A DNA stretch of 64,000 nucleotides. Source: a virus. Its lineage: Duplodnaviria; Heunggongvirae; Uroviricota; Caudoviricetes. Shown one piece after another: positions 1,731 through 59,568 of the stretch. The position numbers and the translations under genes were made by a program. The notes below the pieces were generated by a model. The model searched no databases. It saw only the letters and a list, made by a program, of their open reading frames with translations, and had not been told where the DNA came from. The DNA is taken from IMG/VR virus record IMGVR_UViG_3300012286_000299, positions 109,277 to 173,276 of that record; one strand, 5' to 3'. Position 1 is the stretch's first letter, and each line of letters starts with the position of its first letter.

Positions 1731-1758
1731 AGAGAGCTTGCTTACGCAAGCTCTTTTT
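1731..1758 (+). terminator. rho-independent terminator
   Basis: 9-bp stem AGAGCTTGC / GCAAGCTCT with loop TTAC, followed by a T run. Confidence 0.75.
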
Positions 1759-1768
1759 CGTATATTTA
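1738..1768 (+). promoter_or_regulatory. promoter, TTG-N20-TATATTTA
   Basis: TTG at 1738-1740. The 20-nt spacer contains the terminator 3' arm. TTCG-TATATTTA core. Precedes ORF 1794. Confidence 0.65.
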
Positions 1769-1793
1769 AGTATATTAATTTAAAATAAAGGTT

Positions 1794-2054
1794 ATGAAGT
1801 TTTTAAGATTTCTTTTTGGAGTTCTGATAATGCCTGTAATAGGTTGTTTAGAAATTTTTCTAGCAATAATGTTTCTATGTTGGGCATTTAGTGGATTTGG
1901 GTTAATTATGATAGCTATAGATTATACTGATCATAATCATCATTTTACTTGGGTAGGGTATAGTTTAATGGTTTTAGATGCTATAATATTAATACTGTTT
2001 CTATATGAGCATGTAACAAATGTTTACGAAAAAGTTTATAAAAATCAAAATTAA
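1794..2054 (+). CDS. small membrane protein
   Basis: ORF track; two long hydrophobic segments. Confidence 0.65.
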   Translation: MKFLRFLFGVLIMPVIGCLEIFLAIMFLCWAFSGFGLIMIAIDYTDHNHHFTWVGYSLMVLDAIILILFLYEHVTNVYEKVYKNQN

Positions 2055-2059
2055 AAGTT

Positions 2060-2413
2060 ATGTTTAAAAAATTATTCGCTTACAAACCAACAGAGCAAGA
2101 ACAGCAGTTTATAGACATTGTTAAAGATTTATTAAATCATCCTGACACTGTAGTGAGAATGTCTTTTTATTCAAGAAAGTACTTTTTGACTAACGAGAAA
2201 AAGCATTACTATATGATGCTACAATGGCCAAATGTACAAGTAACTAATACTAAGTTTTCATTTTGTAAATCAATGCATCCAAAAGCATATGATATAATTT
2301 TAAAATTAGTACATGATTATATTGAAAAAGATCGTCAAGCGTTAGAAGATCATATTTTTGCAAACGAAAATAAAATGCTTGAACAAGTAAGAACTAAATT
2401 ACAATTAGCATAA
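2060..2413 (+). CDS. hypothetical protein
   Basis: ORF track; co-oriented and tightly packed; no motif recognised. Confidence 0.6.
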   Translation: MFKKLFAYKPTEQEQQFIDIVKDLLNHPDTVVRMSFYSRKYFLTNEKKHYYMMLQWPNVQVTNTKFSFCKSMHPKAYDIILKLVHDYIEKDRQALEDHIFANENKMLEQVRTKLQLA

Positions 2414-2652
2414 TGTATACAAAAAATATTTACATAGAAGGATTTTTAACTCGTAATGGGTTTAAAAAAATGAATGAAAATGATTTTGCTAATATGAAAT
2501 GTGTTGTAAAAGTTTTTCCCAAATATTATGAAATAGTATTTAATGATGATGAATTTGGGGAAATGACAATGTATACTGATAATATTTCAATACCTCAATT
2601 AGTAGGTATTTTAACTTGGCACGGTTTAATTGATAAAGATTACAATAAATAA
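2413..2652 (+). CDS. hypothetical protein
   Basis: ORF track; TAATG stop/start coupling to the upstream ORF. Confidence 0.6.
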   Translation: MYTKNIYIEGFLTRNGFKKMNENDFANMKCVVKVFPKYYEIVFNDDEFGEMTMYTDNISIPQLVGILTWHGLIDKDYNK

Positions 2653-2927
2653 TGAGAGTAAAACATAGTAAATTTAAAGATTGTGAATTTGTCGTTAGTG
2701 TTGATACTGATGGTAAAAGTTTTACATTAGTAAAAGATCCTTATCCGGCTTATGATGTTAAACCTGATTACTACATTTATTGGAGAAATATAGGAGAAGA
2801 TATTAGAACAGCAGGAAGAACATTATTACGTACTCCTTCAGGACGTAAAGTATCACAAAGTAGAGCTACTAAAATATTACATAATATGATAGCAGCATCA
2901 AAACAACTAACATTTAGCAAATTATAA
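2652..2927 (+). CDS. hypothetical protein
   Basis: ORF track; TAATG coupling. Confidence 0.6.
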   Translation: MRVKHSKFKDCEFVVSVDTDGKSFTLVKDPYPAYDVKPDYYIYWRNIGEDIRTAGRTLLRTPSGRKVSQSRATKILHNMIAASKQLTFSKL

Positions 2928-3160
2928 TGGCAGCACTATCAGACAACAAATACGATGTATTTAATTGGATTATAAAAGTTTATGATTCATGTGAGAATGT
3001 ATCTCAAATAATAACAACAGAAAAATTAATTCGAAACTTTTATAAAATGTACGACGATTATACTTTGTATGATAAGTTACAGGACTATTATTTCGAAGTA
3101 TCAGAAAGACTACAACAAAAAGTAGATAAAAAGACTAGAAAACAAATACTAAAAGGATAA
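2927..3160 (+). CDS. hypothetical protein
   Basis: ORF track; TAATG coupling. Confidence 0.6.
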   Translation: MAALSDNKYDVFNWIIKVYDSCENVSQIITTEKLIRNFYKMYDDYTLYDKLQDYYFEVSERLQQKVDKKTRKQILKG

Positions 3161-3163
3161 ATT

Positions 3164-3565
3164 ATGACATTTATACAGAAATACGTAGACTTTATCTTAG
3201 ATAACATCATACAGGATAATATAAGAGTTCAGCTTTACAAACCTTTTGAAGATGGTTCAAGAATGATTACAAAGATAGGACCTACAGTACATTGTAAAGT
3301 AAAGATTGAAGTAATTGAAAAGTATACACGATCTGCTAAACTAAAACTGACCTTTGATAAATACGAAATCGAAGAACTATTCTTCATACCTTTCAGCTCA
3401 AGTCCAGAATCAATTGAAGGTAAGACACGAACTAAAATTGAAAAGATCGTAAATCAAACTTTCATTGACGATAACAGAACTGAGGATATAAAGCAGATGT
3501 ACGAACAACAACACAAGTTATTAGGAGAAGCACTATCAAAAATAGTAGGTAAGAAAAAAATATGA
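3164..3565 (+). CDS. hypothetical protein
   Basis: ORF track; no motif recognised. Confidence 0.6.
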   Translation: MTFIQKYVDFILDNIIQDNIRVQLYKPFEDGSRMITKIGPTVHCKVKIEVIEKYTRSAKLKLTFDKYEIEELFFIPFSSSPESIEGKTRTKIEKIVNQTFIDDNRTEDIKQMYEQQHKLLGEALSKIVGKKKI

Positions 3566-3912
3566 AGCTAGATAAACAACTCACAACATTAAATCAAGTT
3601 GCTGGTGCTATGTTTTTAGCCAACTCTAGATTTAAAACACAAGCCCATATATCTTCTCAAATGCTAAATCCTGAATGCAATGTAGATCATGAGGAAAGAG
3701 TTAGATATGAAATAATACAAAATCTATCAAAGCATGCAGTTGATACTTTCTCCAAAGAAATTAAAAAACAACAAGTACATGATGGAGAAGTACATTCACT
3801 TGAATTATTTATATTTCCAACTGAAGCATTAAAACTAGCAGTAGAGTACATTATTTCAGAAATGCCACAATCAGAAATAGACAGAATAAGAACAACACCA
3901 ATTTTTATTTAA
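3562..3912 (+). CDS. hypothetical protein
   Basis: ORF track; ATGA overlap with the upstream ORF. Confidence 0.6.
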   Translation: MKLDKQLTTLNQVAGAMFLANSRFKTQAHISSQMLNPECNVDHEERVRYEIIQNLSKHAVDTFSKEIKKQQVHDGEVHSLELFIFPTEALKLAVEYIISEMPQSEIDRIRTTPIFI

Positions 3913-3939
3913 GATTAAGTAAAATAAAATGGAAAAAGT

Positions 3940-3970
3940 TTGCTTATTTAGATTTTTCTTCGTATATTTA
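3940..3970 (+). promoter_or_regulatory. promoter, TTG-N20-TATATTTA
   Basis: TTG at 3940-3942 and a TTCGTATATTTA core. Precedes ORF 4003. Confidence 0.65.
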
Positions 3971-4002
3971 AGTATTATAAATTTAAAAAATAAATAAAAA
4001 TT

Positions 4003-6194: not shown

Positions 6195-6295
6195 CAGCTG
6201 TACACTTAGGATGTGATCCATCAACAATTACAGCTAATTTAAGAGGAATAACAAAAAAAGGATTCGGTTATATATGGAAAAGAAAAACAACATAG
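6176..6295 (+). pseudogene. start-less remnant of a homing-endonuclease C-terminal DNA-binding tail
   Basis: Frame 2 reads LVRTKLAAVHLGCDPSTITANLRGITKKGFGYIWKRKTT-stop with no start codon. It resembles the tail of the intact HNH gene at 25103 (ISEAQRQIGGDIKGALAGRQKTAAGFIWKYKN). It overlaps the thyA-like start. Confidence 0.55.
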
Positions 6296-7509
6296 ATTCT
6301 CAGTATATTAAGCTACTAGAGGATATTTTAGAAAATGGTATTAAAAAACAAACAAGAAATGGTGAAACTATTTCAGTATTCGGAAGACAAATACGTCACG
6401 ATATGAAAGACGGTTTTCCGTTGCTTACAACCAAGAAAATGCCGTTCAAAACAATCGTAACAGAACTTCTTTGGTTCTTACGAGGTGATACCAATATTAA
6501 GTATTTGGTTGATAATAATTGTCATATTTGGGATGGTGATGCTTATAAGAATTATATAAATACCGCACCACCTACATTAGATGGGAAGTATTTATCACAA
6601 CCAGAATTTATTCATTGGATAAAAACAGATGATGAGTTTGCTAAGAAGTGGGGTGAGTTAGGTCCAATTTACGGTAAGCAATGGAGAGATATTCCTGTAA
6701 TAAAAGATGGAGATGTAGAAGGTCATAAGATATTAAGTAGTATAGACCAAATCCAAAACCTAATCAACGACCTTAAAACAAATCCAGACTCAAGACGATT
6801 AATGGTTAATGCTTGGAATGTTGGAGAATTAGACCAAATGGTTCTTCCACCTTGTCATTATGGATTTCAAGTTTATACTAGAGAGTTGACTAAACAGGAA
6901 CGTTGGATGGCTTATTGTAATAAATGTAATGAATTAAAAACAGAATCAATTATAGGTTCTACCGATGATAAAGTAATGGAAAGTTATTATCAAGAATATA
7001 ACATACCAACACGAGCAATCTCTTTAATGTGGAATCAACGTTCAGTGGATACATTCTTAGGTTTACCATTTAATATTGCTTCTTATGGATTGTTGTTGGA
7101 AATCATTGCTGAAATCGTTAACATGGTTCCTGACCAATTGATTGGTAATCTTGGTGATACACACTTGTATTCAAATCATATTGAACAAGCAAAAGAACAG
7201 ATTGGAAGAGAGCTTAATGAAGATGAGAGATATGAATTAGTAACCCAGCAAATGAGTAAACTAAGAGCGATCAGAGATGAAGATTACATTAATTACAATA
7301 TTCCAACTAGAACAAGACAACCTTATTCTTTACCTAAAGTAAGAATCAATACTGAATTCTGGAACCCTGGTACAGAAGATGGATGTGGAATGGGACCAGG
7401 AACTTATACAAAAGATATAGGTGCTCTTGTAGAAGGAATGGAAGTAAATGATTTTCAAATTGAGGATTATCAATCACATCCAACAATCAAAGCACCCTTA
7501 TCAAATTAA
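6274..7509 (+). CDS. thyA: thymidylate synthase (ThyA) family enzyme with large insertions; a dUMP-hydroxymethylase alternative is not excluded
   Basis: Motifs LPPCH, QRSVDTFLGLPFNIASY and GDTHLYSNH. 411 aa against ~264-320 for typical ThyA. Confidence 0.85.
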   Translation: MEKKNNIDSQYIKLLEDILENGIKKQTRNGETISVFGRQIRHDMKDGFPLLTTKKMPFKTIVTELLWFLRGDTNIKYLVDNNCHIWDGDAYKNYINTAPPTLDGKYLSQPEFIHWIKTDDEFAKKWGELGPIYGKQWRDIPVIKDGDVEGHKILSSIDQIQNLINDLKTNPDSRRLMVNAWNVGELDQMVLPPCHYGFQVYTRELTKQERWMAYCNKCNELKTESIIGSTDDKVMESYYQEYNIPTRAISLMWNQRSVDTFLGLPFNIASYGLLLEIIAEIVNMVPDQLIGNLGDTHLYSNHIEQAKEQIGRELNEDERYELVTQQMSKLRAIRDEDYINYNIPTRTRQPYSLPKVRINTEFWNPGTEDGCGMGPGTYTKDIGALVEGMEVNDFQIEDYQSHPTIKAPLSN

Positions 7510-8763: not shown

Positions 8764-8924
8764 GATCATTTTACGTTATTGCATTAGCAATTATTTTATT
8801 ACCTATACCTTATTTTACAGGATTACCACAATGGTTAGCTTTAATACCAACTGCTTATTTGGTTTGGATATTTATAACCTCTTCTTGGTATGCTATTAAA
8901 CGTACATTCTTTAACAAAGACTAA
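8760..8924 (+). CDS. 54-aa membrane protein (below cutoff)
   Basis: ATGA coupling at the 5' end and TAATG coupling at the 3' end. Two hydrophobic segments. Confidence 0.5.
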   Translation: MRSFYVIALAIILLPIPYFTGLPQWLALIPTAYLVWIFITSSWYAIKRTFFNKD

Positions 8925-9403
8925 TGATCTACACAATACAAAAAGGAAGTCATAGGAGTACCTGGTTACCTAAATTTAATACAAATACAATAATAAACTT
9001 TAAGTTTAAATTTTTATCTGATCCTTCATATATTTTAGGTAATAAATTAGATCAAGAAGACACTAACAAAATATTTGGAATATCAGATTCATGGTATCAT
9101 CGTAGACATTCAGTTAGATTAGGTTGGAGATATGATGACAAATTGCAAAAATCTATACTTTGTGTGTATTACTACAGAGATAGTAAACATTATACTCAAG
9201 ATTTAGGTGAAATGTATCAAGATAAAACATATTATGGTTTTATATCAATGTATAAAGATGAGTACATGATAGCATGTTTAGGAGATGTAATAACAATTCC
9301 AAGAACATCAAAATGGTGGGGTCCTCGATATTTATTGTTCCCATACTTTGGGGGACAACAAGTGGCACCAAAACAATTTAAAATAGAATTAACAAACTGG
9401 TAA
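8924..9403 (+). CDS. hypothetical protein, first gene of the queD-queE block
   Basis: ORF track; ends 3 nt before queD; no motif recognised. Confidence 0.65.
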   Translation: MIYTIQKGSHRSTWLPKFNTNTIINFKFKFLSDPSYILGNKLDQEDTNKIFGISDSWYHRRHSVRLGWRYDDKLQKSILCVYYYRDSKHYTQDLGEMYQDKTYYGFISMYKDEYMIACLGDVITIPRTSKWWGPRYLLFPYFGGQQVAPKQFKIELTNW

Positions 9404-9405
9404 AA

Positions 9406-9882
9406 ATGGGAAAATATCAATCAACAAAATTATTCGAGAACTACTCAGTAGCTATCAGACAATGGAAAGCACAACACTCACATTGTCAATTACTTCACGG
9501 ATATGCTTTAGAATTTAAAGTATGGTTTGAATCAATCGAACCTTTAGAAGAAAATCAATTAGACGAAATGAACTGGATCATGGACTATGGTGGGTTTAAA
9601 GAACAACCACAAGGAAACGGTTTAAAAGCATGGATGGACTATATGTGGGATCATACTCTACTAATCGAGAAAGATGATCCGCAATTAGAAACATTCCAAT
9701 ACATGCAAGAATTAGGTTTGTGTCATTTAAGAGTTATGGATAAGATTGGAGCTGAATCAGCTGCTAAACTAGTCTTCGATAAATTCAATGATGTAATGTC
9801 TAAGAATGGAGGAGGTAGAGTAAAAGTAGTAAAAGTAGAGTGCTGGGAAGCTCCTAAGAATTCATCAATTTATGGAGAGTAA
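9406..9882 (+). CDS. queD: 6-carboxytetrahydropterin synthase (QueD/PTPS family)
   Basis: HSHCQLLHGYALEF matches the QueD Cx3HG(H/Y) core. Size and neighbourhood (queE, folE) fit. Confidence 0.8.
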   Translation: MGKYQSTKLFENYSVAIRQWKAQHSHCQLLHGYALEFKVWFESIEPLEENQLDEMNWIMDYGGFKEQPQGNGLKAWMDYMWDHTLLIEKDDPQLETFQYMQELGLCHLRVMDKIGAESAAKLVFDKFNDVMSKNGGGRVKVVKVECWEAPKNSSIYGE

Positions 9883-10747
9883 ATTTCTACAAGAGAATGG
9901 TTTTTTCGATGATAATACAGGAAAAATATCTCTAGCAGATAAATTAGAAGGTAAAACAAAACAGTATATGAAATTAAAAAGAATAGAAGATTACAACAAA
10001 ATACTGCCGATAGTAGAAGTCTATACAGCAGTACAATCAGAAGGAAGTAGAGCAGGATATCCTACAGTAGTAATTCGAACAAGTGGCTGTACTCACCGCT
10101 GCTGGTTCGGTGAAGGAGGTTGGTGTGATAGTCCATACACATCAATTCATCCAGAGAAAGGGAAATATTCATTCCAGAATATAATTGAAGCATACGACAG
10201 AAATCCTCACATCACAGAGATGATGTTAACTGGAGGATCACCAACAATGCATCCAGCATTAGTAAACGAATTAACACATTTTGCACATGAAAGAGGAATT
10301 TTTATTACTATGGAAACAGAGGGATCACATTACTTGGAAACAGACTTTCCGATTAATTTACTTAGCATTAGCCCTAAGTTTTCAAATTCAATTCCAGCAT
10401 TGGGAACCCGCACTCCAGGCGGTGACATCGTTGATGAAAAGATGGTTAAACAGCATAACAAACTTAGATTAAATTATGATGCAATGTCTAAGTCAATTGC
10501 GTATCATTCTGATTATCACCTGAAACCAGTGTGGGATGGAGAGGATGAAGGAGCATTGAAAGAGATTATGGCTTGCATTAAAATTCTAGATATTCCAGAA
10601 GACAAAGTTTGGTTCATGCCAGCAGGAGATTCAAGAGAGGCTTTATTCAAATCATATCCTAAAATGTTTGATTGGGTAAGAGATAATGGATATAGATTGA
10701 CTTGGAGACCACACATCATTGCATTTGAAGATAAAAGAGAAGTATAA
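9872..10747 (+). CDS. queE: 7-carboxy-7-deazaguanine synthase (radical-SAM QueE)
   Basis: VVIRTSGCTHRCWFGEGGWCDSPYT cluster loop and GGSPTMH. Overlaps queD by 11 nt. Confidence 0.8.
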   Translation: MESKFLQENGFFDDNTGKISLADKLEGKTKQYMKLKRIEDYNKILPIVEVYTAVQSEGSRAGYPTVVIRTSGCTHRCWFGEGGWCDSPYTSIHPEKGKYSFQNIIEAYDRNPHITEMMLTGGSPTMHPALVNELTHFAHERGIFITMETEGSHYLETDFPINLLSISPKFSNSIPALGTRTPGGDIVDEKMVKQHNKLRLNYDAMSKSIAYHSDYHLKPVWDGEDEGALKEIMACIKILDIPEDKVWFMPAGDSREALFKSYPKMFDWVRDNGYRLTWRPHIIAFEDKREV

Positions 10748-10753
10748 TATCAT

Positions 10754-10784
10754 TTGGATATTAAAATAGAATTTATTACATTTA
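10754..10784 (+). promoter_or_regulatory. promoter, TTG-N20-TACATTTA
   Basis: TTG at 10754-10756, 20-nt spacer, TACATTTA. Precedes folE. Confidence 0.5.
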
Positions 10785-10803
10785 CCTATTAAAAAAATTA
10801 TAA

Positions 10804-11499
10804 ATGACAGAAAATAGAAAAAAAGTCCACAACGATTTAGAAGTGGTACAAGTGGGATTTGCTAATGGTGTAGCACCTGGATTTCCCCTAAATGAGATTG
10901 AAAAACAAGGTATGATTGAGCAGGCTGCTGAAGCCTATGGTCAGTTTTTAACAGCATTAGGTTGTGATTGGAAAAATGATCCTAATAGTGCTGATACACC
11001 AAGACGTGTAGCTAAAGCCTATGTTAACGATCTATGGAAAGGTAGATATACTCCAATGTCTGAAATTACTTCATTCCCAAGTGATGGTTATGATGGGATT
11101 GTGATTGAAAGAAATATCCCTTTAACATCAATGTGTTCACATCACCACCAAACAATTGGAGGGGTAGTTCATATTGGGTATGTGGTAGGTGAAAATGGTA
11201 GAGTAATTGGTTTATCTAAATTAAACCGAATTGTAGAGCATTTTGGGCGTAGAGGTGCTATTCAAGAACAATTAACCTCTGCTATTCATCAAGCTGTAGA
11301 TAAAATTTGTGAAAATAATAGAGGTGTAATAGTTTCTATTGTTGGTACTCACAATTGCGTTTCTTGTAGAGGTGTTAAGCATCAAGGTGCTTCAATGATT
11401 ACAACTAAAGCATCAGGTGTTTTTATGGAGAATGGAAACTTAGCAAGAGAAGAATTCTTTGATTCAATTAAAATTAATAATGGTAATCATCCAGTATAA
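10804..11499 (+). CDS. folE: GTP cyclohydrolase I
   Basis: SMCSHHHQTIGGVVHIGYV (compare SMCEHHLVPF in E. coli FolE) and RRGAIQEQLT. Confidence 0.9.
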   Translation: MTENRKKVHNDLEVVQVGFANGVAPGFPLNEIEKQGMIEQAAEAYGQFLTALGCDWKNDPNSADTPRRVAKAYVNDLWKGRYTPMSEITSFPSDGYDGIVIERNIPLTSMCSHHHQTIGGVVHIGYVVGENGRVIGLSKLNRIVEHFGRRGAIQEQLTSAIHQAVDKICENNRGVIVSIVGTHNCVSCRGVKHQGASMITTKASGVFMENGNLAREEFFDSIKINNGNHPV

Positions 11500-11903
11500 T
11501 GGCTTTAAGAATTCATAATAAAATTTATTTAGGTTGGGATGATATTAATGATTTAATTGATACATTATGTTCAAAAATTATTACTGATCTTCCTAATATT
11601 GATTCAGTTCATGGTATAAAACGCGGTGGGTTAATTCCTGCCGTGTTGGTATCACATAAATTAGGTTTACCGTGGTCTGACGTGATGTTACCTAATACTT
11701 TAGTAATAGATGATATTTGTGATACTGGAGTTACTTTAAAAAATACAGTTGGAACTTATACGGCTGCTTTACATTATAAACCTCATACTTCTTGTTTTAT
11801 ACCTAATATTTATGCCCACGAACATAAAGGTGATGAATGGATTATCTACCCTTGGGAAAGAAAAGATTCAGAATCTATACAAGATTATTTAAAAACAAAA
11901 TAA
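11499..11903 (+). CDS. type-I phosphoribosyltransferase, Gpt (xanthine-guanine PRT)-like
   Basis: PRPP loop LVIDDICDTGVTL, plus RGGLIPA and WIIYPWE. TAATG coupling to folE. Confidence 0.8.
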   Translation: MALRIHNKIYLGWDDINDLIDTLCSKIITDLPNIDSVHGIKRGGLIPAVLVSHKLGLPWSDVMLPNTLVIDDICDTGVTLKNTVGTYTAALHYKPHTSCFIPNIYAHEHKGDEWIIYPWERKDSESIQDYLKTK

Positions 11904-11907
11904 AAAC

Positions 11908-12099
11908 ATGGCAAAAACTGAACAAATTCTCCAAATTACAGAAGTTATTTCAAATTTAGGAAAAGATCTTTTATCTGCAAATGAATCTAAAACAAATGCA
12001 TCATCTGAAGATCTACTTTTAATAGAACAAAATATTCAATATCTTGAAACTGTTTTACAAGAACATAAAGATAAACTTCAACAACTTATTTCTGAATAA
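11908..12099 (+). CDS. hypothetical coiled-coil protein
   Basis: ORF track. Confidence 0.55.
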   Translation: MAKTEQILQITEVISNLGKDLLSANESKTNASSEDLLLIEQNIQYLETVLQEHKDKLQQLISE

Positions 12100-12102
12100 T
12101 AA

Positions 12103-12492
12103 ATGACAGAAAATTTTGATCCAAATGCTCCTTCAAGAGGATTAGGTGATACAATTGCTAAATTTACTCATACAACTGGTATAGCTAAAGCTGTAGAAGT
12201 TGTAACGGGTGCTTTAGGAATAGAAGATTGTGGTTGTGGAAGAAGACAAGAATGGGTTAATAATTTAATTCCATATGAGAATCAGCCCAACCATAATGTT
12301 CAATATGATCCTAATAATGCTACAGAAGTAGAAGAAGGGATATATGAGGTAATGTATGAGATCCATGCTACTAAAGAAGGTAATAAATTTGATTACAAAG
12401 TAGGTGAAAAAATTTTGATAAATGAAAATCATTTATTATATTCAAATTGGCCTTATTATATAATGATAGGCGCAGTTAAAAAACAAAATTAA
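12103..12492 (+). CDS. hypothetical protein
   Basis: ORF track; no motif recognised. Confidence 0.6.
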   Translation: MTENFDPNAPSRGLGDTIAKFTHTTGIAKAVEVVTGALGIEDCGCGRRQEWVNNLIPYENQPNHNVQYDPNNATEVEEGIYEVMYEIHATKEGNKFDYKVGEKILINENHLLYSNWPYYIMIGAVKKQN

Positions 12493-12501
12493 ATTAAAGT
12501 T

Positions 12502-13026
12502 ATGATTACAAAACCCAATGTACCTTTTATTGACGAGGTAGAAGAATTTAATGCCGTGATGGGCAAACCAAACAATTATGAACCAATTATTCCCGAAAGA
12601 AAAGAGTGGGAGTTCGTGTACAATTTCATCCTTGAGGAACTTGAAGAATATCGAGAAGCTTGCGAAGCAGGAAACATCGTGGAAGTTTTGGATGCTTTGT
12701 GCGATATTACTTATGTTGCCACTGGGAACGGTGCTATGCTACATGGCCTTAAGGGTAAGGTATGGCCGGCATATCAAGAAGTACAAGCTTCAAATTTATC
12801 GAAAGCTTGCCAAACTGAAGACGAAGCTAAAGCAACTGTCATTCAAAGATCGAGTGAACAAGGTGAAGAATGTCATTACGAAAAAGTTGGAGAATATTTC
12901 ATCGTATATCGAACAAGAGATAGAAAAGTAATGAAAAACGTAAATTACTTCAAACCAAACTTAAAACAATTCTTTACAGATAAAGAAATTCAAAAATCAT
13001 ATTTAATACAAATAACAGGAAATTAA
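12502..13026 (+). CDS. MazG-like all-alpha NTP pyrophosphohydrolase
   Basis: Acidic metal-binding helix pair EELEEYREACEAGNIVEVLDALCDITYV. Visibly GC-richer than its neighbours. Confidence 0.7.
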   Translation: MITKPNVPFIDEVEEFNAVMGKPNNYEPIIPERKEWEFVYNFILEELEEYREACEAGNIVEVLDALCDITYVATGNGAMLHGLKGKVWPAYQEVQASNLSKACQTEDEAKATVIQRSSEQGEECHYEKVGEYFIVYRTRDRKVMKNVNYFKPNLKQFFTDKEIQKSYLIQITGN

Positions 13027-13539: not shown

Positions 13540-14085
13540 ATGGATAAAAAAGTATGCAGTAAATGTAAAATTGAAAAAACTTTAGAAGAGTTTTCAATAG
13601 ATTTGTCTACTAAAAGTGGTAGAAAAAGTCAATGTAAAGAATGTAGAAAATTAATTTCTAAAAAGGAATATAAAAGTGATCCTTTATCTCATAATGTTAG
13701 AACTAGTGCTTATTATAAGGATAATAAAGAGTCTACTAGGAAGCAACAACGTGATTATGAAAGAAAACGTTTAAAAGTAGATCCCTTATTTAAATTAGGA
13801 AAATCAATGAGATGTCATTTGTATAGAATATTACAAGGACAAAAATCCATGAGTACTAAAGAATTATTAGGGTATAATGTTGAAGAATTAAAAATTCATA
13901 TTGAATCTCTTTGGGTAGAAGGAATGAATTGGGAAAATTGGGGTAAAGAATGGGAAATTGATCATATTTATCCTCTATCTCAATATTTAAAAGAAGGAGA
14001 AACTAGGCCTAGTATAATTAATAGTCTTAAAAATCTTCAACCTATAAGTAAAATTGAAAATCGAAAAAAATCAAATAAGTTATAA
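13540..14085 (+). CDS. HNH homing endonuclease (free-standing), paralogue of ORF 50911
   Basis: N-terminal CSKCK...CKEC zinc motif. C-terminal EIDHIYPLS...NLQPISKIENRKKSN. Abuts the polB start (TAATG). Confidence 0.8.
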   Translation: MDKKVCSKCKIEKTLEEFSIDLSTKSGRKSQCKECRKLISKKEYKSDPLSHNVRTSAYYKDNKESTRKQQRDYERKRLKVDPLFKLGKSMRCHLYRILQGQKSMSTKELLGYNVEELKIHIESLWVEGMNWENWGKEWEIDHIYPLSQYLKEGETRPSIINSLKNLQPISKIENRKKSNKL

Positions 14086-15812
14086 TGTATAAGAATATTG
14101 TTACGAATTCATTAGGGAAAAATAGATATAAGGTCATTTTATACACTGATGATGGAGTTGAAGAACATGAATTTCAAAATTATGCATATGAAGTGTGTAG
14201 CCAAAACCAGGCTACACATTTTGGTCTAAATGGAGAACCTTTAATGAAAACTACTTATTGGGATAAAACCAATCCCTTTATTCATTATCATGATATGCCT
14301 ATTCATCAAAAATTTTTAATTGATAAATATGGTACTAATGATGAACCCTCAACTACACATCAAGAAATATTTTTTGATATTGAGATTGAAATGGGAGGTG
14401 CTCTTACACCTGAGTACATTAGAAAAGCTCCAAAACCTGTTACTTCAATTGCTTGGTGGCATAAACAAGAAGATAAATGGTATATTTTAATTTTAGATAA
14501 AGATAATAAAATTGAAAAAACTACTATAGAGAATAAATATATTATTCCTGTACCTAACGAAAGAGAATTATTAAATAAGTGGTTAAATTATTTGAACAAA
14601 GTTAACCCTGATATCTTAATTGGCTATAATAGTGATTACTTCGATATACCTTACCTATACTATAGAATACTAAATCAATTAGGTGAACGTAGAGCTAATG
14701 CTTTCTCTCCAATAGGTAAAGTTAAAGAACAAAAACATTCAAATGAATCAGGAATGGTTTTTTGGAATGAAGAACAACCTATAAGAATAGAAGGAATGTA
14801 TTCTTTGGATTACATTCGCTTACATAAAAAATATTCGTTTGCAGATGAACCATCTTATAAATTAGATGCTTTAGGAGAAAAGTATTGTAAATTAGGTAAA
14901 ATTGAATATGAAGGTAGTTTAGACAGATTATTTGAAACTGATAAAGAAAAATTCATTGAATATAACTTTCGAGATGTTGAAATCCTAAAAGCACTTGATA
15001 ATAAATTTAATTATATTAGTTTAACTAAAAATCTAGCTCATAAGGGTAAAATCCATTATGATGATGTTTATCAATCATCTAAAATTCATGATGGAGCTAT
15101 TTCAGCATTCTTATTATCAGAAGATATAATTCCTCCTTCACGAGATAGAAACCCAATTAAAAAAGCTAATTACGCTGGTGGTTATTTGTTTTGTCCTAAA
15201 GCAGGGTTATATCGCTATATGTTTGATGAGGATTTAACTTCACTATACCCATCAATTATTATGTCTCTTAACATTGGTAAAGAAACATTAATAGGTAGAA
15301 TTATTGATTTAAATGATAGAAACAATCATTTAGGTTTAAATGATTTAATAAATGATATTGAAGATAGACCTCGTACTATGGAATGGTTTACTAATAAAGA
15401 TAAGTTCAGTAAAATTGATTGGACTTCTTCTAAAGTAGTTAAACTAATTCAACAATATAATTTGGCTATCTCAGCAAATGGTGTTATCTTTCGTACAGAT
15501 AAAGAGTCTGTATTATCAACTATTCTGAATAAGTGGTTTGATGAAAGGGTTTTATACAAAAATAAAATGAAAGCTGCATATAAAGCAGGAGATACAGTAG
15601 GTGGTGAGAAATATCATTTATTGCAATATACAATGAAAATCTTACTTAATTCACTTTATGGTGCTACAGCATTACCTTCATTTAGATATGGGAATGTAAT
15701 TCTATCAGAAGCAATCACTTTAAGTGGACAACGTATTATTCAAGAATCAGCACTTTGTGCTAACAGACATATGAACAAAGTTATTCGTGGTGAAATTAAA
15801 TTAGAGATATAA
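14085..15812 (+). CDS. family-B DNA polymerase, N-terminal piece (exonuclease domain plus motifs A and B)
   Basis: ExoI FFDIEIE, ExoII IGYNSDYFDIPYL, ExoIII YNFRDVEIL, motif A DLTSLYPSII, motif B KILLNSLYG. Stops before motif C. Confidence 0.92.
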   Translation: MYKNIVTNSLGKNRYKVILYTDDGVEEHEFQNYAYEVCSQNQATHFGLNGEPLMKTTYWDKTNPFIHYHDMPIHQKFLIDKYGTNDEPSTTHQEIFFDIEIEMGGALTPEYIRKAPKPVTSIAWWHKQEDKWYILILDKDNKIEKTTIENKYIIPVPNERELLNKWLNYLNKVNPDILIGYNSDYFDIPYLYYRILNQLGERRANAFSPIGKVKEQKHSNESGMVFWNEEQPIRIEGMYSLDYIRLHKKYSFADEPSYKLDALGEKYCKLGKIEYEGSLDRLFETDKEKFIEYNFRDVEILKALDNKFNYISLTKNLAHKGKIHYDDVYQSSKIHDGAISAFLLSEDIIPPSRDRNPIKKANYAGGYLFCPKAGLYRYMFDEDLTSLYPSIIMSLNIGKETLIGRIIDLNDRNNHLGLNDLINDIEDRPRTMEWFTNKDKFSKIDWTSSKVVKLIQQYNLAISANGVIFRTDKESVLSTILNKWFDERVLYKNKMKAAYKAGDTVGGEKYHLLQYTMKILLNSLYGATALPSFRYGNVILSEAITLSGQRIIQESALCANRHMNKVIRGEIKLEI

Positions 15813-16075
15813 TGGCATTAAAAGGACAATCAATTAGAAACGGGGTTACTATTAATATAAATGGTGTTAAAGCCGAAAAACAATTAGTTATTGATTTATC
15901 TGAAAATTGGGATGAATCACAAGAAAGATTCTTTAAGAAAATGCTTAAACAAGGAGGAAAATGTAAAGTTAATGGAAACTCATTTGAAATTATCCTCAAA
16001 GAAAGATCTGATATAGATTCAAAAGGAAATAGACCTATTAATTTACCACCAGTACCAGGAGAAAGAACATTTTAA
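15812..16075 (+). CDS. 87-aa ORF inserted between the two polB pieces
   Basis: ORF track. TAATG coupling upstream and TAATATG downstream. No nuclease or intein motif recognised. Confidence 0.5.
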   Translation: MALKGQSIRNGVTININGVKAEKQLVIDLSENWDESQERFFKKMLKQGGKCKVNGNSFEIILKERSDIDSKGNRPINLPPVPGERTF

Positions 16076-16076
16076 T

Positions 16077-17012
16077 ATGAAACATTTAGAAGATACCCCA
16101 TGGTGGATATGTGATGAAGGTGATTTTAATTTTTGTGCTTATGTTGATACAGATTCTAATTATTTCAATGCTGAGCCATTATTGAAACATTTATATCCTG
16201 ATTTTGATGAAAAAACTGATCAAGAAAAAGATGATTTATTAGAGAAAGTAGCTCTTAAGTACCAAGATATTATAACTGAACACTATGATATACTTGCTAA
16301 AGAAGCCTTTAATATTAGTACACACCGATTAGAAATGAAAACTGAGTGTGTTATTCGTTCTGCTTATTTTAGAGCTACAAGACGTTATGCTCAATGGATT
16401 ACTAAAAAAGAAGGTATAGCAAAAGAGGAATTAGACATTAAAGGATTAGAATTTAAAAAAGCTAATTTCCCTAAATATTTTGGAAAGTTTTATCAAGAAA
16501 TTCTTGAATTAATCATTAAAGGTACTTCACAGAGTATTATAGATAAGAAAATTCATGAATTTAGACAAGAAGCAACCTCAACTGATATAGATTTTACCCT
16601 TATAGGTAACCCAACATCAGTTAAAACATTAAATGAGTATATAGCTTCCCACCCTAAACCAGGTAAAATATTATCTGAAATAAAATCAGGAGCTGGTGCA
16701 TCAGTTAAAGCTTCTATCAAACATAATGATTTATTACGATTTTGGCAATTAGATTCAAAACATAGTCAAATAGTACAAGGTGATAAAGTAAAATGGGTTT
16801 ATTTAAAAAATAACCCTTATAATATAGAAGCTATTGCATTTTTAGAATTTGATATGGCTGATAAAATCAAAGACTTCATTAATGAATATATTGATAGAGG
16901 GAAAAGTTTTGAAACTATATTACAGAAAAAACTACAAGGCTTCTATGATGACCTTGAATGGATGTTACCACCAGCAAATCCACTAATACATAAATTTTTT
17001 ACATTCAACTAA
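16077..17012 (+). CDS. family-B DNA polymerase, C-terminal piece (motif C plus thumb)
   Basis: YVDTDSNYF (motif C) lies 25 aa from the start. Same reading frame as the N-terminal piece. Confidence 0.88.
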   Translation: MKHLEDTPWWICDEGDFNFCAYVDTDSNYFNAEPLLKHLYPDFDEKTDQEKDDLLEKVALKYQDIITEHYDILAKEAFNISTHRLEMKTECVIRSAYFRATRRYAQWITKKEGIAKEELDIKGLEFKKANFPKYFGKFYQEILELIIKGTSQSIIDKKIHEFRQEATSTDIDFTLIGNPTSVKTLNEYIASHPKPGKILSEIKSGAGASVKASIKHNDLLRFWQLDSKHSQIVQGDKVKWVYLKNNPYNIEAIAFLEFDMADKIKDFINEYIDRGKSFETILQKKLQGFYDDLEWMLPPANPLIHKFFTFN

Positions 17013-23619: not shown

Positions 23620-25044
23620 ATGAAAGAAGGTTATATACCAAAAGAACAAAGAAAAAAGATATTATTCATTTGTGATGATATCAGAATGCACTCGGGTGTA
23701 GCTACAATGGCTCGAGAAATAGTTTTAGGAACCTCTCACCATTATAACTGGGTAATAATTGGAGCAGCTATTGATCATCCTGAATCAGGACAAAGATTAG
23801 ACTTATCTGATGCTACTAACAAAGAAACTGGAAATGAGGATACAAATGTAATTATCTATCCTAGTAATGGATATGGAAGTGCTGATTTAATCAGATATAT
23901 GATAAAGAATGAAAAACCTGATGGGTTAATGTTCTTTACGGATCCAAGATATTATGACTGGTTATTTGCTATCGAAAATGAAGTAAGAAAACAAATACCA
24001 ATGATTTACTTAAACATTTGGGATGATTTACCTGCTCCACTTTATAATAGAGCATTCTATGAATCATGTGATGCTTTATTAGCTATCTCAAAACAAACCA
24101 AAAACATTAATGAAATGGTTTTAGGTAAAAAAGCAGATGGTAAAGTTATCTCTTATGTACCTCATGGTATTAATGAAAAAATGTTTTATCCTATAGAAGA
24201 TAAAACACAGTTACAAGAAACTAAGAAAAAATTATTTGGAGATAAAGAATTTGATTTTGTATTATTCTTTAATTCACGTAATATTAGGAGAAAATGTACT
24301 AGTGATTTATTAGCAGCTCATAAAATGTTTTTAGATTCTTTACCTAAAGAAAAAGCTGATAAAATTGCCTTAGTATTACATACACAAGTTGTAGATAATA
24401 ATGGTACTGATTTAGATGCTGTTAGAACTTTATTATTTGGTAAGAAATCAAACATATTCTTTTCAGATCAAAGAATTGATACTGCTGAGTTAAATAGAAT
24501 TTATAATATATCTGATGCTGTAGTATTACCTTCTTCAAATGAAGGATGGGGATTAGCAATAACTGAAGCTATGATGGCTGGTAAAATGATAATCGCTAAT
24601 GTAACTGGAGGTATGCAAGATCAAATGCGTTTTGAGGATGAAAATGGTAAATGGATTGAATTAACACCTGAATTTCCTTCTAATCATTTTGGTACTTATA
24701 AAAAATGTGGTAAGTGGGCTGTACCTGTATTCCCTAATAACATGTCATTAGTAGGTTCACCTATAACTCCTTATATTTGGGATGATAGATTAGATTTTAG
24801 AGACTTAGCAAATGCTATTAATCAGGTTTATGAATTATCTCCTGAAGAAAGAGTAGAAAATGGTAAAGCAGCTAGAGAATGGGTAACTTCTGATGAATCT
24901 GGTATGAGTGCTAGAATGATGTGCAATAATGTAATTAAAGATATTGATTTAACTTTAGAAACATTTAAACCTAAAAAATCATTTGATCTACTTTTAGTAG
25001 AAGATTTGGAACCTCTAGAATTAGTTCATAAATTAACGTATTAA
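23620..25044 (+). CDS. GT-B glycosyltransferase (GT4-like)
   Basis: LPSSNEGWGLAITEAMMAGKMIIANVTGG (EX7E motif). Confidence 0.8.
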   Translation: MKEGYIPKEQRKKILFICDDIRMHSGVATMAREIVLGTSHHYNWVIIGAAIDHPESGQRLDLSDATNKETGNEDTNVIIYPSNGYGSADLIRYMIKNEKPDGLMFFTDPRYYDWLFAIENEVRKQIPMIYLNIWDDLPAPLYNRAFYESCDALLAISKQTKNINEMVLGKKADGKVISYVPHGINEKMFYPIEDKTQLQETKKKLFGDKEFDFVLFFNSRNIRRKCTSDLLAAHKMFLDSLPKEKADKIALVLHTQVVDNNGTDLDAVRTLLFGKKSNIFFSDQRIDTAELNRIYNISDAVVLPSSNEGWGLAITEAMMAGKMIIANVTGGMQDQMRFEDENGKWIELTPEFPSNHFGTYKKCGKWAVPVFPNNMSLVGSPITPYIWDDRLDFRDLANAINQVYELSPEERVENGKAAREWVTSDESGMSARMMCNNVIKDIDLTLETFKPKKSFDLLLVEDLEPLELVHKLTY

Positions 25045-25102
25045 TTAGATAAGATAAGTTTTCCATTGGGTACATATATTTATTATCATAAATACGTACC
25101 TA

Positions 25103-25774
25103 ATGGATTATCAAAGAATTTACAACCAATTAATAGAAAAAGCTCAAAGTAGAACCTTAGAAGGTTATATTGAAAAACATCATATTATCCCTAAATGTCT
25201 AGGAGGAAGTAATGATAAAGAAAATTTAGTAGAATTAACAGCAAGAGAACATTTTTTATGTCATATGTTACTTTGTGAGATTTATCCTAAAGAAAATAAA
25301 CTAAAACATGCCTTATTTTTAATGTCTATTGGTAAACAAAGGATTAAAGAAAAACATTATGTTGTTGGTTCTAGAGTTTATGAAAGGCTTAAAACTGAAT
25401 ATTCTCAATTTTTAACAGGTAAAAAACAATCACAAGAAACTAAAGATAAAAAGAGTAAAGCTATGTTAGGAATTTGGGAAGATAAAACCCAAGAAGAAAA
25501 ATCTAAGATAGGACAAAAAAGATGGGACACTAGAATCAAAAATGGGACTACTAATATTAAAAGTATTAATAGAAGTAAATCATTAAAGGGTAGAGAAATT
25601 ACATGGGACCGAGGAGTTAATAAAATCATTATTCAATATGATAAACAAAATAACTTTATTAAAGAATGGTCTAGTATATCAGAAGCTCAAAGGCAAATAG
25701 GAGGGGATATTAAAGGTGCTTTAGCAGGGAGGCAAAAAACTGCTGCAGGTTTTATTTGGAAATACAAAAACTAG
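25103..25774 (+). CDS. HNH homing endonuclease with a C-terminal HTH tail, inserted between two GT genes
   Basis: EKHHIIPKCLGGSNDKENLVELTAREH. Tail reads WSSISEAQRQIGGDIKGALAGRQKTAAGFIWKY. Confidence 0.85.
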   Translation: MDYQRIYNQLIEKAQSRTLEGYIEKHHIIPKCLGGSNDKENLVELTAREHFLCHMLLCEIYPKENKLKHALFLMSIGKQRIKEKHYVVGSRVYERLKTEYSQFLTGKKQSQETKDKKSKAMLGIWEDKTQEEKSKIGQKRWDTRIKNGTTNIKSINRSKSLKGREITWDRGVNKIIIQYDKQNNFIKEWSSISEAQRQIGGDIKGALAGRQKTAAGFIWKYKN

Positions 25775-25786
25775 TTATTATATTAA
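25756..25786 (+). promoter_or_regulatory. promoter, TTG-N20-TATATTAA
   Basis: The -33 TTG lies inside the 3' end of the HNH ORF. TATATTAA at 25779-25786. Precedes ORF 25798. Confidence 0.5.
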
Positions 25787-25797
25787 AATAAAAAAAA

Positions 25798-27105
25798 ATG
25801 AAAAATACATTTGTGATATCATGTCCCATAGATTGTTATGCAGGGTATGGAGCACGTTCACGTGATTTAGTTAAAGCGTTAATTAATTTAGATAAATACG
25901 ATGTTAAAATAATGCCTCAACGTTGGGGAAATACACCTTGGAGTTTTATTGAAGATCATCAAGAAGAATGGGGATTTTTACAACCACATATTTTAACAGG
26001 TCAGTTAACTCAACAACCTGATATTTGGGCTCAAATAACAGTACCTAATGAATTTCAAGCTATTGGAAAATATAATATTGGAATAACAGCGGGTATCGAA
26101 ACTACTATTTGTGCTCCTCAATGGATTGAGGGTATGAATAGAATGAGTTTAAATTTAGTTTCATCAGAACATGCTAAAAAAGTATTTCAAGATTCTAAAT
26201 TTCAAAAACATGATGAAAGGACTAAACAAGTTGTTGGTGTAATAGAATTAACATCTCCTATTGAAGTATTATTTGAAGGAGTAGATATTGTTAAATACTT
26301 TGCATCTACATTAACTCCTACTTCCGAAATAAAGCAAGCCTTAGATAATGTAAAAGAAGAGTTTGCATTTTTATTTGTGGGTCATTGGCTTCAAGGTGAT
26401 TGGGGTCAAGATAGAAAAGATGTAGGAGGGTTAGTTAGAGTATTCTTAGAAGCCTTTAAAAATAAATCTAAAAAACCTGCTCTTATATTAAAAACAATGT
26501 CAGGTCCAACTAGTATTATAGATAGAGATAATATCTTGAAAAAAATAGACGTTATAAGACAATCTATGCCTACTAAAAACTTACCTAATATTTACTTATT
26601 TCATGGTGAAATATCAGACGATGAAATGAATCAATTATATAACCATTCTAAAGTAAAAGCAATGGTTAGTTTTACTAAAGGAGAAGGATTTGGTAGACCT
26701 TTACTTGAATTTACTCAAACTAAAAAACCAGTTATTGCTTCAAATTGGAGTGGACAATTGGATTTCTTAAACCCTGAATTTACTTCATTAATACCTGGTA
26801 CTTTAACTAATATTCATCCATCTGCTCAAGTTAAGGATATGTTAATTGATGGTTCACAGTGGTTTACAGTAGATTATGGATTTGCTGGTGGTATATTAAG
26901 AGATTATTTTGAAAATTATAAAAAATATCAAGATAATGGTAAACGTTTAGCACATTATTGTAAAACTAATTTCTCATTTGAGAAAATGCAAGAAAAATTA
27001 GATACTATATTAACTGCTAATATACCTGAGTTTCCAAAGCAAGTGCAATTGAAATTACCTCAATTAAAAAAGGTTGAGTTACCTAAATTAAAAAAAGTAG
27101 AATAA
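25798..27105 (+). CDS. GT-B glycosyltransferase
   Basis: SFTKGEGFGRPLLEFTQTKKPVIASNWSG (EX7E-like). Confidence 0.75.
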   Translation: MKNTFVISCPIDCYAGYGARSRDLVKALINLDKYDVKIMPQRWGNTPWSFIEDHQEEWGFLQPHILTGQLTQQPDIWAQITVPNEFQAIGKYNIGITAGIETTICAPQWIEGMNRMSLNLVSSEHAKKVFQDSKFQKHDERTKQVVGVIELTSPIEVLFEGVDIVKYFASTLTPTSEIKQALDNVKEEFAFLFVGHWLQGDWGQDRKDVGGLVRVFLEAFKNKSKKPALILKTMSGPTSIIDRDNILKKIDVIRQSMPTKNLPNIYLFHGEISDDEMNQLYNHSKVKAMVSFTKGEGFGRPLLEFTQTKKPVIASNWSGQLDFLNPEFTSLIPGTLTNIHPSAQVKDMLIDGSQWFTVDYGFAGGILRDYFENYKKYQDNGKRLAHYCKTNFSFEKMQEKLDTILTANIPEFPKQVQLKLPQLKKVELPKLKKVE

Positions 27106-27106
27106 A

Positions 27107-27559
27107 ATGAAAGATAAATTATCTATATGCCCACGTTGCGGGAGTGATGCTTGTTATGTCACTCCTGTAAATGAAGTAAAAAACAACTATTTCTGTTTTG
27201 GATGTGGTTTTCAAACAAATGACCTAATGAAAGAAGGTGAATTTGATTTTGAAACATATGAAGAACCATTACCTGAACTATATAAAGATCTTAAAAACAC
27301 TGATTCAGAAAAACGTGTTTGGTATCCAATTACTATTAATATTCAGGATAAAGGAACGGTATTTGCCAATGGAAAAACCAAAGATAATTGGACATGGGCA
27401 GGAGTAAAGGCCGTTGAAGTAAGCGAAGAAGAAAAAGGTAAATTTAAAATACCTGGTACTGAAGATTACTATACTCATAAAACTGATATTAAATCTTTAA
27501 AGAATTATCCACAAGATGATTTTATTGAAGCCCTAGATTATATAGGTTTTTATAATTAA
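27107..27559 (+). CDS. zinc-ribbon protein
   Basis: CPRCGSDAC ... CFGCG. Confidence 0.6.
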   Translation: MKDKLSICPRCGSDACYVTPVNEVKNNYFCFGCGFQTNDLMKEGEFDFETYEEPLPELYKDLKNTDSEKRVWYPITINIQDKGTVFANGKTKDNWTWAGVKAVEVSEEEKGKFKIPGTEDYYTHKTDIKSLKNYPQDDFIEALDYIGFYN

Positions 27560-27562
27560 TAT

Positions 27563-30322: not shown

Positions 30323-30324
30323 AA

Positions 30325-31871: not shown

Positions 31872-31877
31872 AAAATT

Positions 31878-32312
31878 ATGATACTAATTTCACATAGAGG
31901 GAATACAAACGGGAAGTTTGAATCCTATGAAAATGAACCTAATTACATTGATAAAGCCATATCAGAAGGATATGATGTTGAAATTGATATTTGGTGTATT
32001 GAAGGTCTTTTATTATTAGGACATGATAAACCACAATACGGTATAACACAACATTGGTTAAATGAACGACATGATAAATTATGGATACATTGTAAAAATG
32101 TAGAAGCTGTAGAATGGTTTAACATGATTAAAGGGTTTAATTATTTTTGGCATGAAGAAGATACAGTAACATTGACATCACATGGATTTATTTGGGCTTA
32201 CCCAGGTAAACAACCTATAAAAAATTCAATAGCAGTATTACCTGAAAAATACAATGATAATTTAAATCAATGTATAGGAATATGCTCCGATTATTTAAAA
32301 AATTATAAATAA
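31878..32312 (+). CDS. glycerophosphodiester phosphodiesterase (GDPD)-like
   Basis: ISHRGN...ENEPNYIDKAISEGYDVEIDIW follows the HRG..EN..E.D pattern. Confidence 0.6.
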   Translation: MILISHRGNTNGKFESYENEPNYIDKAISEGYDVEIDIWCIEGLLLLGHDKPQYGITQHWLNERHDKLWIHCKNVEAVEWFNMIKGFNYFWHEEDTVTLTSHGFIWAYPGKQPIKNSIAVLPEKYNDNLNQCIGICSDYLKNYK

Positions 32313-33618: not shown

Positions 33619-33619
33619 T

Positions 33620-59499: not shown

Positions 59500-59516
59500 G
59501 AATTAATTACAGAAAA

Positions 59517-59541: not shown

Positions 59542-59568
59542 TTACTTTAACCCTTAATCAGTATATAT

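Follow-up and report, generated by a model that had tools for sequence, protein, structure and literature searches.

A FolE-coupled compact phosphoribosyltransferase in a phage 7-deazaguanine gene cluster without a detectable QueC–DpdA3 segment

What do phage genes for 7-deazaguanine synthesis do where no DpdA can be found beside them? In the published view, every virus with such genes encodes DpdA and the modifications are all post-replicative (PMC10516641), and a DpdA-family transglycosylase has been proposed as the signature protein of phage 7-deazaguanine systems (Hutinet 2019; Cui 2023). The question is raised by a 64,000-nucleotide stretch of viral DNA, hereafter the window (positions 109,277 to 173,276 of the IMG/VR record IMGVR_UViG_3300012286_000299, Caudoviricetes), in which queD, queE and folE are followed by genes for a compact phosphoribosyltransferase (PRT) and a MazG-like pyrophosphohydrolase. 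The original prediction, made from the letters of the window, had the PRT turn 7-carboxy-7-deazaguanine (CDG) into a nucleotide before replication. We find that the PRT genuinely belongs to the phage deazaguanine module, in which it stands with folE, queD and queE in most of 80 loci, and we tentatively explain it as a guanine-salvage enzyme that feeds FolE. Phage deazaguanine DNA systems as such are known; the FolE-coupled or FolE-fused PRT goes undiscussed in the papers found, and to it we add a small clade of phages in which the QueC–DpdA3 segment is missing.

The region examined, 73 kb in all, consists of the window and 8.8 kb upstream of it, the latter taken from a Logan assembly of run ERR3489837 (L085) that represents the same phage at 100% identity. 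It belongs to a genome of probably 173 kb, of which the window probably makes up a little over one third. The window is low in GC (29.7%), and almost every substantial open reading frame (ORF) in it lies on the plus strand. Matches to Pfam, NCBIfam and PHROG models confirmed queD, queE, folE, PRT and mazG where they had been predicted (Table 1), and the 11-nt overlap of queE with queD and the TAATG shared by the folE stop and the PRT start were likewise borne out. FolE, QueD and QueE are 45–88% identical to the enzymes of phages immuto and phiST, and the phmmer matches of phiST QueE and FolE to their window counterparts reach 8e-135 and 1.7e-92. From window position 9974 on, QueE shares 87.6% identity with that of immuto, and its N-terminus is about 34 residues longer than in the relatives. 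QueD is 96% identical to the QueD of related locus L007 and 90% to that of L087, and bears the phage-type CxxxHGY motif. We considered the change from HGH to HGY as a marker of QueC-less pathways and rejected it, since HGY is common to all relatives, immuto included.

As predicted, mazG is richer in GC than the window (35.6%; GC3 28%). The same is true of queD and queE compared with their surroundings, and these three are also the genes most similar (86–96%) to the copies of other phage lineages, which together points to mosaic exchange. At the DNA level, similarity of about 84% is limited to queE, folE and mazG. Within the clade lacking DpdA3, which is described below, dN/dS is 0.02–0.43 for queD, queE, folE, PRT and mazG, so that all five genes are kept by purifying selection. 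Judged from its sequence, the region appears to hold the first half of a phage 7-deazaguanine system, functional and kept by selection. It could instead be a decaying remnant, left behind when the QueC–DpdA3 segment was deleted, and that segment is indeed missing from the position it holds in relatives. We consider decay extremely unlikely, as all reading frames are intact, the catalytic motifs are invariant, and dN/dS stays well under 1 across several diverged contigs.

Table 1. Genes of the 7-deazaguanine cluster and its immediate neighbours, in window coordinates
Feature	Coordinates	Strand	Basis
queD (6-carboxytetrahydropterin synthase)	9406..9882	+	Pfam PTPS 1.4e-11; PHROG QueD-like 2.6e-33
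queE (7-carboxy-7-deazaguanine synthase, radical SAM)	9872..10747	+	Pfam Radical_SAM, NCBIfam QueE models
folE (GTP cyclohydrolase I)	10804..11499	+	Pfam 7.3e-43; NCBIfam FolE 4e-43
Compact Gpt-like type I purine PRT, 134 aa	11499..11903	+	PF00156; NCBIfam xanthine PRT 3e-12
Two small ORFs (63 aa, 129 aa) between the PRT and MazG genes	11908..12492	+	
MazG-like all-alpha NTP pyrophosphohydrolase	12502..13026	+	Pfam PRA-PH 3.4e-9; PHROG 671 (nucleotide pyrophosphohydrolase) 6e-27
ORF 8924, small beta-jelly-roll protein, polysaccharide-lyase-like fold	8924..9403	+	predicted structure, neighbour outside pathway

The best sequence matches of the PRT among characterised enzymes are E. coli Gpt (XGPRT; PDB 1A95/1NUL) and the archaeal purine PRTs (4TRB, 1VDM), and the nearest solved structures are 4trb (8e-11), 1vdm (3e-10) and E. 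coli XGPRT (2e-3). Its score against the NCBIfam xanthine PRT model NF006613 is 46.3 bits, under the equivalog cutoff of 138, and GenBank labels the protein simply as phosphoribosyltransferase. The phage PRT shares with these enzymes the RGG pyrophosphate (PPi) loop, the DDxxDTGxT motif, a lysine and the C-terminal W-x-x-x-P-W-E stacking motif. In a 35-member alignment, R42-G43-G44 of the PPi loop, D71-D72, D75, G77, T79 and P118-W119-E120 are invariant and K94 is nearly so; the window PRT reads KRGG and VIDDICDTGVT, and thus has both the PPi loop and the motif for phosphoribosyl pyrophosphate (PRPP). It differs from Gpt in its small size, in its place in a folE operon, sometimes as a fusion, and in having lost the flexible catalytic loop or hairpin of about 25 residues between the second strand and the PRPP motif, as judged against the phiST PRT, which retains it, and against PDB 1vdm. 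The identity is 61% to the immuto homologue and 27% to that of phiST. In 6-oxopurine PRTases the aspartate of DTG contacts the purine N7 and the lysine contacts O6. Since this N7-contacting aspartate (D75) is invariant, guanine or xanthine would fit the site better than a 7-carboxy-7-deazapurine.

A scan of IMG/VR gave at least 411 PRT relatives, of which 80 loci were analysed. FolE is encoded in 69 of these, QueD in 56, the same MazG in 55, a split PolB in 54, QueE in 51, DpdA3 in 44 and QueC in 43, usually in the order DpdA3-(x)-QueC-QueD-QueE-FolE-PRT-MazG-PolB. The PRT gene lies within 200 nt of folE in 57 of the 69 loci that have both. The window exposes a conserved component of these systems, a small purine PRT that stands next to FolE or forms one protein with it, and whose relatives occur in at least 411 viral contigs. 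Carriers include immuto, phiST, phi13:1, phi19:2 and the Brevundimonas phage MaInes, in which the PRT adjoins a dNMP kinase, a ribonucleotide reductase and a DpdA3-like gene. All G is replaced by fdPreQ1 in immuto and by dDG in phiST, phi13:1 and phi19:2. The original prediction had placed dCDG in a Cellulophaga phage; dCDG has instead been reported in the Sulfolobus virus STSV-2, and the modification is dDG in Cellulophaga phiST and mdPreQ1 in phiSM.

The coupling goes furthest in siphophages of Stenotrophomonas and Pseudomonas, where the PRT forms the N-terminal domain of FolE. In the Stenotrophomonas phage NC_072504, gp47 (L094:35672-36565) is a 297-aa PRT–FolE fusion that is annotated as GTP cyclohydrolase I only, with its motifs RGG, DDIIDSGDT and WVVFPWE intact; the Pseudomonas phages Baskent_P4_1 and PSASB_03 show the same match pattern. 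NC_072504 encodes QueE, QueC, QueD, PRT–FolE and a classical DpdA in Queuovirinae gene order. The Queuovirinae clusters (QueE-QueC-QueD-FolE-DpdA; iggy, CAjan) have the same biosynthetic genes as the window, but they also have QueC and a classical DpdA, and their G is partially modified, at sequence motifs and after replication (PMC10484667).

The PRT is not found in every such cluster. An unbiased set of loci was selected by a degenerate DpdA3 motif scan of IMG/VR, and among the matches listed, 19 of the 34 folE-containing loci have no PRT; several of these read DpdA3-QueC-QueD-QueE-FolE-MazG-PolB. Given both the adjacency or fusion to FolE and this absence from DpdA3 clusters, the PRT looks like an accessory that the pathway can do without, tied most closely to FolE, the first enzyme and the one that consumes GTP, and not like an obligatory last step. 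Our literature searches on the topic found no paper linking a compact PRT to phage deazaguanine DNA, and the published descriptions of immuto- and phiST-type systems never mention it (PMC10516641).

The MazG-like protein scores 37.4 bits against PRA-PH, over the cutoff of 21.3, and its metal-binding residues E45, E46, E49, D64 and D68 are invariant. It has a conserved C-terminal extension of about 90 aa and is 88% identical to its immuto homologue. Searches of the PDB by sequence and by profile gave no solved relative, and the predicted structure is poor (pLDDT 54, from a shallow alignment). The family is highly conserved over 6256 metagenomic homologues and occurs also in jumbo phages without deazaguanine genes, and this lack of specificity speaks against the proposal that the enzyme is a dedicated purger of (d)GTP. 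In the MazG-less lineages L062, L077 and L087 a protein resembling dCTP deaminase or dUTPase follows the PRT, and phiST has a different MazG located after folE.

The original prediction had found no QueC-, QueF- or TGT/DpdA-like ORF in the window, and four tests over the 73 kb came out equally empty. With the proteins of immuto and phiST as queries, tblastn and phmmer found no QueC, QueF, DpdL, DpdN or DpdA. Hidden Markov models (HMMs) were made from 46 sequences of DpdA3 and 42 of QueC; over the complete set of six-frame ORFs in the 73 kb their best E-value was 0.17 (0.38 for the QueC model), and phmmer with phiST DpdL gave 0.084 at best. All ORFs of 190 aa or longer were scanned with Pfam or PHROG models, and none proved to be QueC, QueF, DpdL or DpdA. 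Finally, 18 unannotated ORFs were compared with the DpdA3 profile by hhalign, which gave probabilities of at most 0.8%, compared with 96% for a control at 16% identity. In this the window differs from the phiST/immuto system (PMC10516641), to which it is otherwise close: FolE, QueD and QueE are homologous, the PRT is of the same family, immuto has the same MazG, and the cluster lies beside replication genes there and here. A further difference is the polymerase, which is PolA in immuto and a split family B enzyme in the window.

The window does not stand alone in this respect. L006/L007, L009 (extended by L098) and L035, the last being the 111-kb IMG/VR contig 3300008267_000007, are colinear with it over a stretch that begins at thyA, takes in the polymerase and GroEL, and reaches the clamp loader. 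The QueC–DpdA3 segment, which relatives have 2–5 kb upstream of queD, is absent from the window and from all of these. There is thus a small phage clade that keeps FolE, QueD, QueE, PRT and MazG under selection without this segment. A 199-kb contig (L096), reached via the upstream glucosaminidase, showed no colinearity with the window. Deazaguanine genes can scatter: QueC of immuto lies 11 kb from queD, and the phiST PRT lies 20 kb from the cluster.

Given these data, we tentatively favour the following explanation, which we hold to be possible and somewhat short of probable. FolE, QueD and QueE would convert GTP to CDG. The PRT would join guanine (or xanthine) to PRPP, and the resulting GMP would be phosphorylated to GTP and so refill the substrate pool of FolE. 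The MazG-like enzyme, encoded just upstream of the DNA polymerase, would serve the replication module as a generic nucleoside triphosphate (NTP) pyrophosphatase. The salvage role is suggested by the frequent adjacency of PRT to FolE, the TAATG overlap, the fusion, the coexistence with DpdA3, the dispensability of PRT and its Gpt-like motifs. Where DpdA is present, the PRT would recycle the guanine expelled from DNA and thereby close the cycle; if it does, this would account for the way in which phages meet the heavy demand for GTP that modifying a whole genome makes. As for the fate of CDG in the present phage, no gene for an enzyme that would place the base in nucleic acid was found in the 73 kb. 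The likeliest outcome is that the remaining 100 kb or so encode a DpdA, perhaps accompanied by QueC or a DpdL-type decarboxylase; by our own estimate, which is not a computed value, even this is less likely than not. Alternatively, QueC, QueF and TGT of the host would take over, which we estimate, again by judgement and not by computation, to be quite unlikely.

Several observations weigh against the salvage explanation. Without DpdA no guanine is released, and salvage has less to do. The gap at the QueC–DpdA3 segment is clade-wide, being found in four independent syntenic contigs (L006/L007, L009/L098, L035 and possibly L012), and in the 44 DpdA3-positive loci DpdA3 lies no more than about 6 kb from the cluster, while here none was found in the 18 kb before the cluster or the 51 kb after it. 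The PRT is atypical, with no flexible loop and a score far under the Gpt cutoff, and its substrate could have shifted. In addition, several lineages have an NTP pyrophosphatase of one family or another after the PRT, a hint of chemistry at the level of nucleotides.

Such chemistry lies at the heart of the pre-replicative route of the original prediction. There, the PRT would join CDG or a derivative of it to PRPP, host kinases and ribonucleotide reductase would carry the 7-deazaguanine ribonucleotide on to a dNTP, the polymerase would incorporate it, and MazG would remove (d)GTP, with no DpdA involved. The clade would then be truly free of DpdA3 and QueC, the PRT would make a ribonucleotide as TubE does, and a CDG-type base would enter DNA before replication. 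We regard this as unlikely, although a good deal speaks for it. Neither the 73 kb nor four syntenic relatives yielded a detectable QueC, DpdA3 or DpdL, purifying selection acts on all five genes in the DpdA3-less clade, and the PRT has lost its canonical catalytic loop. TubE of the tubercidin cluster is a proven CDG-specific PRT, encoded in a cluster that lacks QueC and has a nucleotide hydrolase (PMC6112128). The Bacteroidota phages phiST and immuto, with 100% G replacement, both carry a PRT and an NTP pyrophosphatase, and nucleotide kinases, an HD domain or a ribonucleotide reductase stand beside the cluster in phiST, L087, CP220 and MaInes. Moreover, DpdA3, which is credited with 100% replacement, has never had its activity demonstrated or reconstituted (PMC10516641).

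Against these points, the partner of the PRT is FolE and not QueE, and a phage that depends on DpdA even has the two as a single protein. The PRT occurs together with DpdA3 in most loci, many DpdA3 clusters do without it, and the aspartate that contacts N7 in 6-oxopurine PRTases is invariant. No (d)NMP kinase or ribonucleotide reductase was detected in scans of the window, and MazG proteins of this family are also found outside deazaguanine phages. The absence of DpdA covers 73 kb, and about 100 kb of genome lies beyond. Of the proposed CDG-to-nucleotide role, the membership of the PRT in the module and the TubE precedent stand, while FolE coupling, coexistence with DpdA3, dispensability and the conserved DTG aspartate speak against the rest. 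Nor was a pre-replicative route undescribed for deazaguanines, as had been claimed: a modified-dGTP route was suggested in 2019 for Campylobacter phages, and the recognition of DpdA3 led to its being set aside in 2023 (PMC10516641).

The comparison with Z-genome phages (PurZ/MazZ/DatZ), and with hmC in T4, holds in part. As there, an enzyme of nucleotide metabolism and an NTP pyrophosphatase stand beside the polymerase, and base replacement is complete in the related phages phiST and immuto. Unlike those systems, however, the window has no dedicated kinase, its PRT would yield a ribonucleotide and not a deoxyribonucleotide, and its MazG-like enzyme, for which (d)GTP specificity would be hypothetical, has no detectable sequence match among solved structures. 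If the pre-replicative route were true, it would by extension let PRT and NTP pyrophosphatase explain the 100% G replacement in phiST and immuto, both of which have DpdA3. Should the clade prove to have no DpdA at all, a nucleotide-pool route to deazaguanine DNA could be tested cleanly in these phages.

The empty searches for DpdA and QueC in the 73 kb would also suit a role in tRNA modification. CDG would be overproduced by the phage and inserted into tRNA as queuosine by host QueC, QueF and TGT, with the PRT supplying GTP, and NAU codons would be decoded better in a genome of 30% GC. According to a 2019 paper, the hosts of DpdA-less phages with a preQ0 pathway all have the full queuosine pathway; the GC content of the window agrees with the proposed benefit, and the PRT–FolE coupling suits a supply role. 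Every characterised relative, however, uses the pathway for DNA modification, and the module sits in a replication block beside the polymerase, and we consider queuosine support distinctly unlikely.

The gene content also invites comparison with nucleoside antibiotics. TubE and ToyH, PRTs that join CDG or preQ0 to PRPP, are likewise type I PRTs encoded with FolE, QueD and QueE homologues (PMC6112128); the likeness is one of gene content. The set in the window parallels the tubercidin core TubC, TubA, TubB and TubE with the Nudix enzyme TubG, and the product here could be of the tubercidin/toyocamycin type, a 7-deazapurine nucleotide or nucleoside that stays free, is directed against the host or its defences and is kept outside DNA. 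In one related locus, genes resembling a dioxygenase and a sulfotransferase lie between PRT and mazG, as they might in such a pathway. TubE, however, has 194 aa and is partnered by a UbiD decarboxylase and a GMP reductase, and Pfam scans of the window ORFs revealed no UbiD decarboxylase, no GMP-reductase-type protein and no other tailoring enzyme. The tubercidin pathway yields a secreted nucleoside and not DNA, the phage family is known for DNA modification, and the PRT is coupled to FolE; a small-molecule product is highly unlikely on this evidence.

The ORFs around the five genes had been put forward as candidates for tailoring steps. For ORF 8924, which ends 2 nt before queD and not 3 as first given, this role was rejected. 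Its high-confidence model has fold similarity to the alginate lyases of families PL7, PL14 and PL36, unrelated phages have homologues of 38–43% identity next to their portal or DHFR genes, and a homologue 82% identical occurs in L087 within a complete phiST-like cluster that has DpdL, a kinase and DpdA3. It was also considered as a counterpart of phiST CGPG_00066, which has the same length, but phmmer came back empty and CGPG_00066 is an AAA_18 kinase-like protein. The two small ORFs between PRT and mazG, at 11908 and 12103, matched no family in the Pfam, NCBIfam and PHROG scans. By tblastn, the 129-aa ORF 12103 is found among close relatives exactly in the DpdA3-less loci L006, L007, L009 and L035, and it is found also in the distant DpdA3-positive loci L062-64, L067, L070 and L073.

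The pair of genes between PRT and mazG in the related locus mentioned above (L041:10384-11588) encodes a dioxygenase resembling Asp/Asn hydroxylases and a sulfotransferase, which may represent additional tailoring chemistry; QueD, QueC and DpdA3 were not found in the 8 kb upstream. Nucleotide genes flank DpdA3 in several phages. CP220 (L093:10862-13355) has an HD-domain/P-loop protein and a thymidylate-kinase-like gene there, phiST (L004:18382-18861) and L087 (15366-15848) have an AAA_18 kinase-like gene, and immuto has a thymidylate kinase. That a kinase always stands beside DpdA3 is nevertheless not a general rule, as it holds in phiST, L087, CP220 and immuto and fails in the PolB-type marine loci.

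In the stretch downstream of mazG (13540-17012), the family-B DNA polymerase is encoded in two pieces, an N-terminal ORF of 575 aa (14085-15812) and a C-terminal one of 311 aa (16077-17012). An 87-aa ORF separates the halves, and an HNH endonuclease lies just upstream. The split is kept in about 50 related loci, and L007 has an HNH-like gene between the halves. Upstream of the cluster, the thymidylate-synthase homologue (6274-7509) is unusually long, at 411 aa, contains an insertion, and keeps the asparagine of PFNIAS, which is typical of dUMP-specific thymidylate synthases; its counterparts in L007 and L009 are broken up by an HNH-type endonuclease. A PARP-like ADP-ribosyltransferase (47-1111) stands at the window start, and directly upstream of the window lies an NAD-related block (L085:4322-8710) with a Nampt-like NAPRTase (545 aa), a 298-aa PF00156 protein and an NADAR protein. 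This block also encodes a protein resembling nucleoside 2-deoxyribosyltransferases (L085:6606-7070); its action as a base-exchange enzyme is conceivable, but its place is among the NAD genes and the L009/L098 relative does not have it.

The palindromes GATC, AGCT, TGCA, CATG and CTAG are under-represented in the window as a whole (z -4.4 to -5.5). As a proxy for modification such avoidance of restriction sites is uninformative, since the fully modified immuto has the same palindrome pattern. A sugar-metabolism block of 13 kb (23620-36384) carries two GT1/GT4 and at least five GT2 glycosyltransferases, together with a SAM methyltransferase, a fusion of HAD phosphatase and nucleotidyltransferase, an HNH/NUMOD endonuclease and several unannotated ORFs. 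A single tRNA gene (55298-55367) scores 44.8 bits in Rfam, and ARAGORN assigned it no anticodon.

The element CTTCGTATATTnnrGyATAAT occurs in 25 copies, all on the plus strand, against an expected 0.01. The copies lie at 1756-3978 and 43413-63596, mostly just upstream of small ORFs, and no copy is found from 3978 to 43413, the block with the deazaguanine, replication and glycosyltransferase genes. From this placement, the element probably serves as a promoter specific to the phage. An exact tandem duplication with a period of 871 bp (59080-60820) has doubled a small basic repeat-containing ORF together with this promoter-like element. At 63100-64000 the composition changes abruptly, with no match to an Rfam family; this part contains GC-rich inverted repeats (for example GGGCAGGGTCTCCGCTCCCCTGCCCC and GGGACCCAGGCTTTACAGCCCCGGGTCCC) and is GC-rich over its last 120 nt, and it may represent a genome end or junction.

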